Below, piece by piece: positions 1 through 4,701 of a stretch of 4,701 nt of DNA (position 1 is the stretch's first letter; every line of letters begins with the position of its first letter). Position numbers and translations under genes: made by a program. The stretch lies in IMG/VR virus record IMGVR_UViG_2663763286_000019; one strand, given 5' to 3'. The stretch comes from a virus (Duplodnaviria; Heunggongvirae; Uroviricota; Caudoviricetes). The notes under the pieces are model-generated. The model had not been told where the DNA came from, did not search any database, and worked only from the letters and a program-made list of their open reading frames with translations.

Positions 1-296
1 TTAACCAGTGGCCGGCACTGACGTACTATGCGAACGATGGCTGGGTGGAAATCGACAACAACATCGCTGAAAATGCCCTGCGGGCGGTCAGTCTGGGTCG
101 TAAAAACTTCCTGTTCTTCGGCTCTGATCATGGTGGTGAGCGGGGAGCGCTACTGTACAGCCTGATCGGGACGTGCAAACTGAATGACGTGGATCCAGAA
201 AGCTACCTTCGCCATGTGCTTGGCGTCATAGCAGACTGGCCGGTCAACCGGGTCAGCGAACTGCTTCCGTGGCGCATAGCACTGCCAGCTGAATAA
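1..296 (+). CDS. IS66-family transposase (TnpC-like), C-terminal fragment; 5' end lies upstream of the window
   Basis: Reading frame is open from the window edge (codons from position 3: [14 protein letters not shown]...) to TAA at 294-296. Translation ...[75 protein letters not shown]... matches, from memory, the conserved C-terminal region of IS66-family transposases. Not confirmed by search. Confidence 0.8.
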
Positions 297-435: not shown

Positions 436-708
436 ATGGACAATAACACCATTTCTCTACAGGAGTTGCTCGACTGCATTTCAAAGCTTCGGGATGATGT
501 AAATGCCCTCACTGTTGCATTTTCATATTTGGCCTTATCAATTCCCAGAGAACAAATGCAACCAACACTGGCATCGCTCCTGCTTGAATCACGCAACCCC
601 AAATGGTCCCAGGAACAACAAAATTCTTTCAAGTGGCTGGCGGCATTACTGGAAGAAAAATATGCTGGTAAAATTACCATTTCGGTGGAGTCTTCAGAGA
701 ATCAGTAA
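436..708 (+). CDS. Hypothetical protein, 90 aa, predicted mostly helical; function unknown
   Basis: ATG at 436 preceded by AAGAGGA with about 6-nt spacing. No recognisable motif in MDNNTISLQELLDCISKLRDDVNALTVAFSYLALS... . Its 3' end overlaps the convergent 674-1018 gene by 35 bp, so one of the two ends may be miscalled. Confidence 0.4.
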   Translation: MDNNTISLQELLDCISKLRDDVNALTVAFSYLALSIPREQMQPTLASLLLESRNPKWSQEQQNSFKWLAALLEEKYAGKITISVESSENQ

Positions 709-1018
709 TTCTTCCTGGTAGCTTTCCTTTGTAGGTTATCCACACATTCTGCGCCTCTAAAATTACGGGGCGCTTTTCCGGCGACTGCTCATCCCCTTCA
801 CATAACCCGGCTGCAACTTCCAGGAAGACCTGTCTGATGCTCCTTCTGGCTGCTGCCTCATAAAACTCCAGCGCGGCACCTTCAACACGGTCCAGCGAGA
901 TGTCCAGGTCAAAAATTTCACCGTCAAAGCGTTTTTTGTCCCTTAATGCTACAGTTACCGCAACTTTATTCTCAAAATTGCGGATCCCTTTCACAATCAG
1001 TTCATAGTTTTGTGTCAT
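674..1018 (-). CDS. DUF1327/YdfR-like prophage protein (114 aa from the ATG at 1018)
   Basis: The ORF track gives 674-1039, but the internal ATG at 1018-1016 has a GGGGAGAG Shine-Dalgarno about 8 nt upstream and lies 4 nt after the holin stop, so I call 1018 as the start. Size (about 115 aa) and position directly after the holin match the YdfR/DUF1327 slot of Qin-type prophages. Assignment is by context, not sequence recall. Confidence 0.55.
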   Translation of the reverse strand: MTQNYELIVKGIRNFENKVAVTVALRDKKRFDGEIFDLDISLDRVEGAALEFYEAAARRSIRQVFLEVAAGLCEGDEQSPEKRPVILEAQNVWITYKGKLPGRITDSLKTPPKW

Positions 1019-1022
1019 TGAA

Positions 1023-1238
1023 TTACTCTCCCCGTGCAACCTTACGCTTGTCTTCTTTAATCTTGAAATAAAGGTTTGTCAGGTACGTCAGCAAGCCAAA
1101 TACCAGACTACCCAGCACACCGATTGCAGCCCACTGTGACGGAGTTACTTTATCGAGTAACTGCAATGCCCAGAAACCAGCATTACCAGCCGATGTGCCA
1201 TAGGCGATACCTGTTGTTAACTTATCCATTGATTTCAT
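1023..1238 (-). CDS. essQ: Class II holin (phage 21 S-type pinholin) with dual-start motif
   Basis: 71 aa, [71 protein letters not shown], closely resembling the phage 21 S / EssD / EssQ pinholin as I recall it. Met1-Lys-Ser-Met4 dual start (antiholin/holin), two hydrophobic segments, charged C-terminus. SD GGGGTGAGGA upstream of the ATG at 1238. Confidence 0.85.
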
Positions 1239-1456: not shown

Positions 1457-1627
1457 ATGTCAGAACGTAAAGACTCAAAATCACGCCGTAATTATCTCGT
1501 TAAATGTTCCTGCCCAAACTGCACCCAAGAGTCAGAACACAGTTTTTCAAGAGTACAAAAAGGTGCCCTTTTGATCTGCCCTCATTGCAACAAAGTATTC
1601 CAGACAAATCTTAAAGCTGTAGCTTGA
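1457..1627 (+). CDS. ynfU: Small zinc-ribbon protein, 56 aa (CxCPxC ... CPHC), YnfU-like
   Basis: The ORF track starts at 1406, but the internal ATG at 1457 has AGGAAAAG 7 nt upstream. Product MSERKDSKSRRNYLVKCSCPNCTQESEHSFSRVQKGALLICPHCNKVFQTNLKAVA has two Cys pairs about 18 residues apart. The gene symbol rests on my recollection of a 56-aa putative zinc-binding protein at this position in Qin and is unverified. Confidence 0.5.
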   Translation: MSERKDSKSRRNYLVKCSCPNCTQESEHSFSRVQKGALLICPHCNKVFQTNLKAVA

Positions 1628-1709: not shown

Positions 1710-1990
1710 AATATTGTGGTACTTTTTGTGGGAGTCATCCACTTACGCACTTTGTTTTGCTATGCCAGCAGTTAGCTTCTGCTGTAAAACTATTCATGCA
1801 GCAAACCTGCACTTCACCACAATGGTTAGCATACTTTTCCTGATTAAGTTATTGCCAAATATGCTGGCCATTGTTTCATGTATTGGACCTCCTTACTCTT
1901 TATTAAAGAGATCCAATATTCACCACTCTGTCTGTATCTCCACTCAGGCATCAGCCTTCTTCGTTATCGTATACAGACAAACTATGAATT

Positions 1991-2206
1991 TTAATCAGTA
2001 ATTATGACATTTGCTGCTGCAGGACCTTTAGCACCACTCTCTACAGAGAAGGTAACCTTTTGACCTTCAAATAAGGTTCGATAATTATCATTCTGAATCG
2101 CAGAAAAATGCACAAACACATCTTTACTACCATCAACAGGAGAAATAAAGCCAAAACCTTTATCAGCGTTAAACCATTTTACTAAACCAGTCATTTTATT
2201 TGACAT
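1991..2206 (-). CDS. cspB: Cold-shock protein CspB (CspA family, 71 aa)
   Basis: [71 protein letters not shown] carries the cold-shock domain RNP1/RNP2 motifs (KGFGFI, VFVHF). AAGGAA SD upstream of the ATG at 2206. The paralog call (cspB rather than cspA/G/I) relies on the C-terminus ...NVIITD and the prophage context. Confidence 0.85.
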
Positions 2207-2366
2207 TCTACATTCCTTAACTTGAGCCTTTCGGCATAAATGGCTTGTATAACAGAAACGACTTCGTACTTAATTGGAGAGACTCAAAGAAGGAATAAGT
2301 GAATAACACCTGAAATGAGAACTGCTTTAGTAAACTACTTCGTATATCGTCTGTTCTTCAAACCGA
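2207..2366 (-). promoter_or_regulatory. cspB long 5' UTR (about 160 nt) with cold-box-like element near its 5' end
   Basis: Minus-strand sequence GGTTTGAAGAACAGACG (2364-2348) resembles the cspA cold box (GGUUUGACGUACAGAC), and GCCGAAAGGC plus UUAAGGAAUG near the start codon resemble the cspA leader. Transcription start inferred at about 2366 by analogy with cspA. Confidence 0.55.
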
Positions 2367-2372
2367 CGCAAT

Positions 2373-2506: not shown

Positions 2507-2719
2507 TTGTCCCGTAAAATGACAGGAATTCTCAAAACCTTTGACGGCAAAAGCGGCAAAGGTCTTATAACCCCATCCGATGGTCGTATCGATGTCCAGC
2601 TTCATGTTTCAGCGCTCAATCTCCGCGATGCAGAAGAAATTACCACCGGATTACGCGTGGAATTTTGCCGGATAAATGGTCTGCGTGGACCATCAGCTGC
2701 CAATGTTTACCTTTCATGA
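2507..2719 (+). CDS. cspF: CspF/CspH-type cold-shock-like protein (70 aa), non-canonical CspA paralog
   Basis: [70 protein letters not shown]. Apparent TTG start at 2507 with AAGGAA 5 nt upstream. Called cspF rather than cspH because it is divergent from cspB and sits between Q and the holin. Confidence 0.75.
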
Positions 2720-2773
2720 GCTATATTAAAGCTTTAACTTCAAGCCCCATCGAATCAAACATGGAGAGTTTTC

Positions 2774-2863
2774 ATGAATAAACCCGTCTGTCTTGATGAC
2801 TGGTTGATTGGCTTTAAAAGCTTATGCTGTACTTTGACCTTAATAGCTCTGCTAATAATGTAA
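2774..2863 (+). CDS. Candidate small hydrophobic protein, 29 aa ([29 protein letters not shown])
   Basis: ATG at 2774 with GGAG (2763-2766) 7 nt upstream, TAA at 2861-2863, 55 nt downstream of the cspF stop. The C-terminal about 20 residues are hydrophobic and could form one transmembrane helix. Short ORFs are frequent by chance in AT-rich DNA. Confidence 0.3.
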
Positions 2864-3011
2864 TAAGCAGACTCATTGTATCTATGGACATTGTACTGGA
2901 AGAAAGCATTTTAAACATCAGGCAAAAAACAAAGTCACCCGATAAATAATAAGTAAACTAACATGAATCCCGTAATGAGATTCAACATCTCTATTACCCT
3001 ATTTAAAGCAC

Positions 3012-3037
3012 AAAAACCCGCTCATCAGCGGGTTTTC
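3012..3037. terminator. Bidirectional intrinsic terminator: tR'-like on the minus strand after the late promoter, cspF terminator on the plus strand
   Basis: Stem CCCGC (3017-3021) / GCGGG (3028-3032), loop TCATCA, with A5 and T4 flanks extending the stem. The plus strand continues TTTTCTACTTTTTCTT; the minus strand continues TTTTTGTGCTTT. Confidence 0.65.
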
Positions 3038-3069
3038 TACTTTTTCTTAACTTCGGGTATACAAAGCCC

Positions 3070-3110
3070 ATCGTTGAAAAAATTTTATCCATATTTTTTG
3101 AAAAATGCAA
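3070..3110 (-). promoter_or_regulatory. Late promoter (pR'-like) with lambda-type AACGAT element in the initially transcribed region
   Basis: Minus strand: -35 TTGCAT (3110-3105), 17-bp spacer, -10 TAAAAT (3087-3082), then TTTTTTC and AACGATGGG (3075-3067). As I recall, AACGAT is the -10-like pause-inducing element at the start of the lambda pR' transcript where Q engages. Located 32 bp downstream of the Q stop. Confidence 0.5.
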
Positions 3111-3141: not shown

Positions 3142-3894
3142 TTATCTCGTCACCTTTCTCAATTGTGCTTCAGCGTAAGATTCCTCCTGCCAGCACTTTG
3201 TAACCAGTTTATCAATGACATTTGCATATCCTTTATACCACTGATAATCACTCAGGTCCGGTACCAGCTTCTGGACATGATGCCGCGCCAGTGTGGTTGG
3301 TAAACGACTAAACCGTTTTCCATTGCAACGCCCACAAATCTTATAAACAGGTGTGCCATGAAGCCGGGTCCTTTTTTCATCCAAGACAATACCTTTACCC
3401 TTACACCCTCTGCACGCTGTGCTGACTTCTCCCTTACCATGGCAATGCTGACATAGTTCCTTCACCCACTCTTCTTTGATAACAGATTCCCCGCTTCTGG
3501 AGTGTTTCACCACTTCGCGCAATACATTATGAAATCCAGTACCAGCACAATGCTCACAACGAGCCTTACTTGCCGCAGACCTGGAATAATCAGCAAAGGC
3601 AAAATTCACAAGGTAAGGAATAATCTGTAGCCGGGTTTCTTCACTCAATTTATTCAATGTCGGGTTATCCAGTGCCATCGCGTAATTGAGCAGACCTTCA
3701 ATCGCAAACTGAGGATCCTGAACACCAACTTTTGCCAGGAATAAGGCAAACCCAAGCGGTGCTTTCGACTGCACCATCCCCTGCGTAGCCATCACATCCG
3801 TAATCGTTAAACCACCAGAGCCTGTCGCCGGTGCGTCATCACTCAATTTTGGAGATTTTGGGGAGTAATATTTTGGTAAGGCTTCAAGGTTCAT
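3142..3894 (-). CDS. quuQ: Late-gene antitermination protein Q homolog (250 aa)
   Basis: 250-aa ORF immediately upstream of the pR'/tR'-like module and downstream of a DUF968 gene, matching the size and position of Qin QuuQ. GGAG SD 7 nt upstream of the ATG at 3894. Contains four CxxCxGxG-type repeats (CEHCAGTG, CQHCHGKG, CRGCKGKG, CGRCNGKR). Confidence 0.75.
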   Translation of the reverse strand: MNLEALPKYYSPKSPKLSDDAPATGSGGLTITDVMATQGMVQSKAPLGFALFLAKVGVQDPQFAIEGLLNYAMALDNPTLNKLSEETRLQIIPYLVNFAFADYSRSAASKARCEHCAGTGFHNVLREVVKHSRSGESVIKEEWVKELCQHCHGKGEVSTACRGCKGKGIVLDEKRTRLHGTPVYKICGRCNGKRFSRLPTTLARHHVQKLVPDLSDYQWYKGYANVIDKLVTKCWQEESYAEAQLRKVTR

Positions 3895-3907: not shown

Positions 3908-4701
3908 TTACGCCAGTACGCCTATTGCCAGCGCACGATCGATAAAACGAAATATCAGCTCCAGCTGGGAGCCATACTTCTCTTCAAATGCCACGGTATC
4001 CGCATGCAGCTCGTCGTGATGCTTTCTGCACAAAGGCAACACAAAGAGGTCATGCGCTTTTGTAGCCATTCCACCCTGACCGTGACCTATCAGGTGGTGG
4101 GGATCATCAGCAGGCTTTCCACAACATGCGCACGGCTGCGTCTTAACCCAGCGCGTGTACTTTTCATTAACCCAGCGGTGACGTTTTGGGCGTAACATAA
4201 AAGACTCCGGCGACTCCGGATCCACTTTCAGCGCCAGCACCTTTTTCGCCTTATCCTGGATGATGCTGGTGGCAGGAACCGAAGGCACAAGGTCACTTTC
4301 CCGGGTAACAGACGGCACAACAGGCTTCGGTAATCTCAGTGCCTTACGGGCTGCACTTTCCGGTAAGGCATCCGCCAGATCATTACGAATCAGCCACCAG
4401 CACAGTTCCGGCATTGTCACAACATGACTGTCATCAAAACCGAGATCCCGACGCACAACAGACAACACCCAGCGGGCACAGTTATCCGTTGCCATTGATT
4501 CCAGCCGTTCCGTGAACTGATCGCGCAGCTGGTTATCGCAGTGCCAGCACAGACGGATTGCGCCCGGAGCGTGTCGCATTGTTGTCATGTTCTCGCTGTG
4601 CCAGTCGGAATGAGGCCACTGGCAGCCTTTTTCACGAAGTAACCAGCTTTCAAGACATTCCACGCCACCAGCACGACGGATCACTGCCTCATTGCGGAAC
4701 A
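3908..4701 (-). CDS. ydfU: YdfU-like DUF968 protein, C-terminal about 260 aa; N-terminus beyond the window
   Basis: The frame stays open to the window edge (...FRNEAVIRRAGG...), so the M at 4684 in the ORF track is a GTG codon, not the true start. Cys/His-rich C-terminal region (CACCGKPADDPHH ... CRKHHDELH). Stop TAA at 3908-3910 is 13 nt before the Q start, so the pair is probably co-transcribed. Identification is by context and size as recalled for Qin. Confidence 0.7.
   Translation of the reverse strand, partial: FRNEAVIRRAGGVECLESWLLREKGCQWPHSDWHSENMTTMRHAPGAIRLCWHCDNQLRDQFTERLESMATDNCARWVLSVVRRDLGFDDSHVVTMPELCWWLIRNDLADALPESAARKALRLPKPVVPSVTRESDLVPSVPATSIIQDKAKKVLALKVDPESPESFMLRPKRHRWVNEKYTRWVKTQPCACCGKPADDPHHLIGHGQGGMATKAHDLFVLPLCRKHHDELHADTVAFEEKYGSQLELIFRFIDRALAIGVLA

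Follow-up and report, generated by a model that had tools for sequence, protein, structure and literature searches.

The reading frame downstream of cspF in a Qin-type prophage of Escherichia coli is ynfS, a conserved gene for a likely membrane peptide

Introduction

Just downstream of cspF in a lambdoid prophage of Escherichia coli lies an open reading frame (ORF) of 29 codons, preceded by a Shine-Dalgarno (SD) sequence. Is this ORF a genuine gene, and what kind of peptide does it encode? The DNA analysed here, referred to as the window, is a stretch of 4,701 nucleotides from IMG/VR virus record IMGVR_UViG_2663763286_000019. A sequence-only reading of the window had likened the peptide to type I toxins and had guessed that it might be one of the small proteins already reported from the Qin prophage. 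Here we show that the ORF is ynfS of the E. coli Qin-type (P21-holin) lambdoid prophage, we compare it with divergent homologues in Citrobacter-type prophage loci, and we weigh the roles that its product might have.

Results

Organization of the prophage locus

The window comes from the late region of a Qin-type lambdoid prophage of E. coli. Strain 2013C-4974 is its best match (99.9%), and the window is 94.7% identical in DNA sequence to the corresponding locus of K-12 MG1655. The left end is occupied by the 3' end of an IS66-family (ISEc8-like) transposase gene (1-296, plus strand), which takes the place of the lysozyme and Rz genes of K-12; the lysis cassette is therefore truncated. A 90-aa ORF (436-708, plus strand) that has no Pfam match follows, and its 3' end overlaps that of ydfR (DUF1327; 674-1018, minus strand). 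Next to ydfR lies the gene for a P21-type holin (1023-1238, minus strand). ynfU (1457-1627, plus strand) encodes a 56-aa protein with a CxxC...CxxC zinc-binding pattern (NCBIfam NF038384, E=7.9e-23) and is conserved at the same position in Citrobacter-type loci.

Two cold shock genes lie between ynfU and the ORF of interest, and they are divergently arranged. cspB (1991-2206, minus strand) has a cspA-type 5' untranslated region (UTR); a full-length Rfam match to the cspA thermoregulator (1928-2367, minus strand; 156.7 bits) covers this 5' UTR together with the start of the gene and is the only real Rfam match in the window. cspF (2507-2719, plus strand) was assigned by NCBIfam model NF012007 (CspF, 158 bits); its induction by AZT has been reported (PMC11228462). 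Beyond the ORF and convergent with it is the Q antiterminator gene quuQ/ydfT (3142-3894, minus strand; Pfam PF03589 Antiterm, E=7e-53), and a DUF968 gene begins at 3908 on the same strand. The prophage also carries hokD and relBE.

Sequence features of the ORF

The ORF (2774-2863, plus strand) starts with an ATG at 2774-2776 and comprises 29 sense codons; its TAA stop codon (2861-2863) is directly followed by a second TAA. A GGAG (2763-2766), part of GGAGAGTTT, is separated from the ATG by a 7-nt spacer, and the cspF stop codon (2717-2719) ends 54 nt before the ATG. All of this was read directly from the DNA and agrees with the sequence-only reading, which had also described a polar N terminus and a hydrophobic tail of about 20 residues. 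The latter is a fair description by Kyte-Doolittle hydropathy: residues 1 to 10 average -0.45 and residues 11 to 29 average +2.17, a value at which the segment qualifies as a potential membrane helix. The tail nevertheless includes the polar or charged residues K15, S16, T20, and T22, and its strongly hydrophobic core, residues 16 to 29 (mean, +2.46), is only 14 residues long.

These features taken alone are only modestly beyond chance. When the window was shuffled 200 times by mononucleotides, 6% of the shuffled windows held a comparable ORF with SD and ATG (20 to 50 aa, with a 14-residue stretch of mean hydropathy of at least 2). Sequence features of this kind are therefore insufficient to make the case for a gene, and homology, conservation, and published experiments are the decisive evidence.

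Two further ORFs overlap the 3' end of the 29-codon frame, and both are probably spurious. One, of 41 aa (2824-2949, plus strand), is open also in K-12, yet it lacks an SD, and Citrobacter-type loci do not conserve it. The other, of 34 aa (2814-2918, minus strand), is a CDS in the annotation of phage HannyBb, which holds many small calls like it.

Identity with YnfS and published translation evidence

The peptide matches Pfam family PF23697 (YnfS) over positions 1 to 29 of 29 (E=1.2e-19; 70.1 bits against a cutoff of 27). It is identical to K-12 YnfS at 25 of 29 residues, the substitutions between the two being N3K, A22T, V23L, and I29M. In RefSeq, this 90-nt CDS is entered as a hypothetical protein both in K-12 (WP_120795389) and in strain 2013C-4974. 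The window, K-12, and 2013C-4974 share the same gene slot, after cspF and convergent with the Q antiterminator gene. The window allele also retains the K-12 ribosome-binding site GGAGAGTTTT, with SD and ATG unchanged. We regard the ORF as virtually certain to be an orthologue of ynfS.

ynfS is not a new gene. VanOrsdel et al. (2018) described it as a 29-aa ORF between cspF and ydfT, detected the K-12 protein on immunoblots by means of a chromosomal SPA tag, and scored the gene as positive in a tetracycline ribosome-profiling screen (PMC6001520). The peptide and coordinates in that paper exclude the possibility that its data concern some other ORF. Weaver et al. reported strong start peaks at K-12 ynfS with both retapamulin and Onc112 and found that YnfS-SPA accumulates in stationary phase in LB (bioRxiv 10.1101/511675). 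The guess that the ORF is one of the reported Qin small proteins was thus correct (PMC6001520; 10.1101/511675), and the two checks proposed with it, initiation-stalled ribosome profiling and epitope tagging, had already been published for K-12 with positive results. This translation evidence belongs to the K-12 allele, whose SD and ATG the window allele shares. A 2024 survey of the y-ome still lists ynfS among the uncharacterized genes (PMC11551758).

Searches of NCBIfam, PHROGs, PADLOC, and PDB sequences returned no match for YnfS, and Rfam has nothing at the ORF. Against phage records, tblastn aligned only residues 1 to 16, since the low-complexity filter masks the YnfS tail. A tandem-duplicated YnfS query gave only five matches, all of them aberrant longer gene calls with a frameshifted or fused YnfS; one is a CspF-YnfS fusion, and none holds an intact 29-aa YnfS. 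In the rare frameshift alleles P0001 and P0004, YnfS is fused to the 41-aa frame described above. We also considered whether the peptide might be a bacterial lipoprotein and sought a lipobox ([LVI][ASTVI][GAS]C) after a signal-peptide n- and h-region. C18 is preceded by K-S-L and C19 by S-L-C, with no preceding signal peptide, and this reading was dropped for want of a lipobox.

Conservation of YnfS beyond E. coli

A search of viral contigs with CspH identified cspF-like genes whose proteins are Citrobacter CspF. Most of these Citrobacter-type genes are followed, after 62 to 65 nt, by a 29-codon ORF (MYPKIYLNDWLTGLKSSCCTLIVTILLFI, MYQKIYLNDWLTGLKSSCCTLIVTLLVFI, or MNQTVYLSDWLTGLKSLCSTIAMTILLFI). 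The divergent YnfS homologues, in loci L169 to L209, are exactly 29 codons long and 45 to 55% identical to the window peptide, and PF23697 matches 14 of 14 YnfS alleles, those of the Citrobacter type included. Reading-frame conservation in related prophages, which the sequence-only reading had singled out as a point to check, is thus present from Escherichia and Shigella to Citrobacter-type loci. The Citrobacter-type loci keep the whole island of ynfU (plus), cspB (minus), cspF (plus), and ynfS (plus). There its neighbors are a DUF968 gene and a Q-type gene that differs from the E. coli one and is shorter, with the convergent order kept.

Nine residues of YnfS are invariant across the clades (M1, L7, D9, W10, G13, K15, C18, T20, and L26), and most fall within a central motif, L-x-D-W-L-x-G-x-K-x-x-C-x-T. 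The conserved stretch runs from L7 to T20, and the last nine residues are variable yet hydrophobic. Third codon positions vary, whereas L7, D9, W10, G13, K15, C18, and T20 are fixed. Between clades, pN is 0.18 to 0.30 and pS is 0.56 to 0.98; omega is about 0.2 for ynfS where it is computable, compared with 0.06 to 0.12 for cspF. No indels occur inside the ynfS ORF, while they are present in the intergenic region, and similarity is lost right after the stop codon. Apart from GGAGAGTTT, which does not vary among the window, K-12, and three Citrobacter-type loci, the intergenic DNA cannot be aligned; the intergenic region and 3' flank are only 21 to 48% identical between E. coli and Citrobacter-type loci. 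Together, the alignments show the signature of purifying selection on a protein-coding gene, at lower strength than on cspF.

Polymorphism within Qin prophages looks different. There, ynfS shows 1 synonymous and 8 nonsynonymous changes, against 20 and 13 for cspF in the same haplotypes (Fisher p=0.02), so that recent constraint on the exact ynfS sequence looks weak. Neutrality as a general conclusion from the 1:8 count was overturned by the deeper comparison with Citrobacter-type loci. The count would also fit a reading in which ynfS is translated but has no function of its own, as a by-product of a good ribosome-binding site in the 3' untranslated region of cspF. A chance ORF of this kind arises in about 6% of shuffled windows, and no phenotype has been reported for ynfS. 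A by-product would hardly, however, keep the 29-codon length, the SD, and nine invariant residues at 45 to 55% protein identity while its flanks become unalignable, nor would it show pN well below pS between clades.

Distribution and loss of ynfS

With a 121-nt query around the ORF, ynfS was found in 1412 of 5426 complete E. coli genomes, nearly always as a single, chromosomal copy. cspF is present in 1531 of the genomes, and ynfS accompanies it in 1412 of these. Among species-representative genomes, a degenerate pattern for 10 YnfS residues occurred only in E. coli and Shigella. Downstream of the K-12 chromosomal paralogue cspH there is no YnfS-like ORF; an IS1 lies nearby.

All 129 IMG/VR loci that carry the DDWLIGFK pattern hold the 29-codon frame. 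A ynfS-independent anchor inside cspF yielded 120 loci on viral contigs: 92 with intact ynfS, 25 with a deletion, 1 with a nonsense mutation (codon 15), and 2 cut by the contig end. The recurrent deletion is 258 nt long (window positions 2711 to 2968, approximately) and takes away the whole of ynfS, the final codons of cspF, and most of the ynfS 3' UTR; the hairpin at 3013-3036, described below, and the Q side are left intact. In total, ynfS is lost in about 21% of cspF-bearing viral contigs and in about 119 complete E. coli genomes, and the gene is dispensable.

Loss in about one-fifth of cspF-bearing contigs, together with the nonsense locus, is a further point for a functionless by-product. 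The deletions, however, destroy cspF as well, and cspF is already decayed or frameshifted in the copies that carry the 258-nt deletion; we therefore read them as signs that the whole cassette is decaying in a cryptic prophage, not that ynfS in particular is being lost. Taken with the between-clade conservation, this makes it unlikely that ynfS is a by-product, and we prefer to view it as a selected protein-coding gene.

Probable transcription of ynfS and the putative late promoter facing it

A scan for promoters and terminators found no site resembling either between cspF and ynfS. The first plus-strand terminator after the gene pair is a GC-rich hairpin, AAAACCCGC-TCAT-GCGGGTTTT (3013-3036), which leaves ynfS with a long 3' UTR of about 150 nt. 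Given this arrangement, cotranscription is the simplest reading, and cspF and ynfS are probably expressed from one transcript, with cspF as the probable first cistron. The 258-nt deletion alleles, which lose the cspF 3' end and ynfS jointly, were counted in favor of an operon, as was the presence of ynfS in 1412 of the 1531 genomes that carry cspF.

The hairpin at 3013-3036 has T-runs on both strands, the one on the plus strand recovered by the terminator scan and the one on the minus strand read directly. On the minus strand, the fold of 3005-3080 has a free energy of -25.9 kcal/mol (z=-4.49). Just downstream of the Q gene lies a pR'-like motif (3110-3082, minus strand) with TTGCAT (3110-3105), a 17-nt spacer, and TAAAAT (3087-3082); it scores below the threshold of the promoter scan. 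Locus L010, of the deletion class, retains both hexamers with one change in the -10. By analogy with lambdoid pR'-tR', we infer that motif and hairpin are a Q-dependent late promoter and its terminator. The hairpin would then probably serve both as the terminator of cspF-ynfS on the plus strand and, on the minus strand, as the tR'-like end of a short RNA from the late promoter.

A second hairpin, at 1687-1710, shares the core AAAAACCCGC...GCGGGTTT with that at 3013-3036 and likewise has T-runs on both strands. The hairpin at 1687-1710 separates the convergent genes ynfU and cspB, and that at 3013-3036 the convergent genes ynfS and quuQ. Because of the T-runs on both strands and the convergent flanking genes, both are probably bidirectional terminators. 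Another hairpin, TGAATCCCGTAATGAGATTCA (2964-2984), is terminator-like on the minus strand and would be a tandem terminator after the tR'-like hairpin; the recurrent 258-nt deletion ends within it.

In locus L201, of the Citrobacter type (1865-1927), the stop codon of the Q-type gene is only 61 nt from that of ynfS. A weak minus-strand promoter-like match (1873-1845; 9 of 12 positions, with 1.1 such matches expected by chance) overlaps the ynfS 3' end there. From the short distance and this match, the late promoter of L201 may fire from within or beside ynfS, although chance alone would account for such a match and the window has nothing equivalent.

The layout of the transcription units would also suit a role in cis, in which translation of ynfS stabilizes the cspF mRNA or blocks Rho termination or antisense pairing. 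ynfS follows closely behind cspF, with a 3' UTR of about 150 nt after it and the late transcription unit on the opposite strand. Such a role needs no conserved amino acids, yet ynfS is conserved at the protein level, and we consider it extremely improbable compared with a function of the peptide itself.

Comparison with the properties of type I toxins

The suggestion that the peptide belongs with type I toxins of the TisB/ShoB/Ldr class would make YnfS a toxin, or another peptide that damages membranes in a similar way, with its synthesis restrained by a minus-strand antisense RNA. YnfS is indeed small, with a hydrophobic C-terminal half, and the host prophage also holds hokD and relBE. Of the features that could be tested, however, size and hydrophobicity were the only ones that agreed, and the assignment is unsupported. 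At E<=10, PF23697 was the only Pfam match, with no homology to Hok, Ldr, TisB, ShoB, Ibs, Zor, or DinQ, and YnfS has no PADLOC match. The ynfS ribosome-binding site is not sequestered, as the fold around the SD is not significantly stable (z=-0.74). Nor is ynfS an independent module, lying as it does 54 nt behind cspF with no terminator between.

The search for an antisense RNA that had been proposed for the minus strand found no sigma-70-like promoter opposite or 3' of ynfS. Between 2200 and 3200, the only minus-strand promoter-like site was at 2474-2445, and it points away from the ORF; this was a consensus scan, which weak promoters may escape. A transcript from the putative late promoter at 3110-3082 would be antisense to ynfS, and the weak match over the ynfS 3' end in L201 points the same way. 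The only antisense transcript that we infer for ynfS is accordingly one made by Q-dependent read-through of the hairpin at 3013-3036. The clades share no conserved 3' flank, the place expected of a cis-antisense gene.

In ordinary growth, classical type I toxins are kept repressed. YnfS-SPA, in contrast, is present in stationary phase in LB, and the initiation peaks in untreated growth are strong (10.1101/511675). Literature mentioning ynfS contained no report of toxicity upon overexpression. On balance, a type I toxin is quite an improbable identity for YnfS.

Probable membrane anchoring

Hydropathy fits the likeness to small membrane proteins that the sequence-only reading had also drawn. 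It suggests a C-terminally anchored, single-pass inner-membrane peptide, and we think this assignment likely. Membrane spanning is not certain, because the core is only 14 residues long and contains polar serine and threonine. The literature that we found reports no membrane fractionation, partner, or phenotype for YnfS. In the proposed topology, W10 and K15 would sit at one membrane interface, with the hydrophobic tail running to residue 29. The N-terminal polar decapeptide and the interfacial motif would contact a specific partner. L7 to T20 would span this interface and the opening turns of the hydrophobic segment, and their conservation, set beside last nine residues that vary but stay hydrophobic, fits specific contact better than membrane damage. 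We advance only tentatively, and with some doubt, the proposal that YnfS acts through such a partner and not as a generic membrane-damaging toxin.

Discussion

We propose that ynfS follows cspF as the second cistron on a shared mRNA, which would end at the hairpin at 3013-3036. This mRNA would be expressed from an accessory ("moron") island, ynfU-cspB-cspF-ynfS, which is located between Q and the lysis genes, and from the strand opposite to late transcription. Lysogens would produce YnfS and CspF together. In the lytic phase, RNA polymerase modified by Q would read through the hairpin and generate a transcript antisense to ynfS and cspF, leading to their shutdown; without Q, no antisense transcript across ynfS is predicted. 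Taken as a whole, this explanation, which joins the identity of ynfS, the operon with cspF, the membrane anchor, the specific partner, and the late antisense transcript, seems to us reasonably probable.

A bolder proposal is that lambdoid prophages carry CspF and YnfS as a conserved functional unit of two genes, active in the lysogen and silenced by antisense late transcription once the prophage itself enters lytic growth. It would pair a nucleic acid binder with a cold shock domain (CSD) and a membrane peptide, for instance in superinfection exclusion or abortive infection. The hints are the linkage of cspF and ynfS from Escherichia to Citrobacter-type prophages, beside two types of Q, and their orientation, convergent with the putative late promoter. 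CspF weakly matches the PADLOC cold shock domain model CSD_V (E=7.1e-5) and the retron Se72 effector model (E=5.4e-4; 19.8 bits against a cutoff of 82). These two matches are the only hint of a link to defense, and they may reflect generic CSD similarity. Such a two-gene unit strikes us as very improbable on present evidence.

As a discovery, ynfS matters little: the gene is already known and named, RefSeq annotates it, Pfam has a family for it, and its expression has been demonstrated. The present analysis adds constraint on YnfS at the protein level across two genera, tight linkage of ynfS and cspF within the four-gene accessory island, a cluster of conserved residues at the predicted membrane interface and not in the hydrophobic tail, and a count of the gene in complete E. 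coli genomes (1412 of 5426). What interest ynfS retains lies in its function and in its conserved linkage with cspF. Constraint, linkage, and interface clustering provide a concrete start for testing what a CspF-type protein and YnfS do in the lysogen.

The closest known system is K-12 YnfS itself (PF23697; WP_120795389), which the window copy resembles in locus, length, and SD; the prophages differ in that the window has an IS66-family insertion instead of the lysozyme and Rz genes. With the type I toxins TisB, ShoB, Ldr, Ibs, and Hok, YnfS shares small size and hydrophobicity. It differs from them in having no sequence relationship to any and in being encoded by a second gene behind cspF. 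It also departs from type I modules in its expression during normal growth and its unoccluded ribosome-binding site, and no dedicated antisense RNA gene was found. AcrZ, MgtS, and MgrB belong to a group of small E. coli proteins that cross the inner membrane once and modulate larger membrane proteins. Unlike proteins of this type, YnfS is prophage encoded, has a short hydrophobic core, and is restricted to Escherichia/Shigella and to prophage contigs with adjacent Citrobacter Csp proteins. It nevertheless resembles them in size (under 50 aa), in its single hydrophobic segment, and in its short polar end, and the tagging and ribosome-profiling screens that found them found it too.
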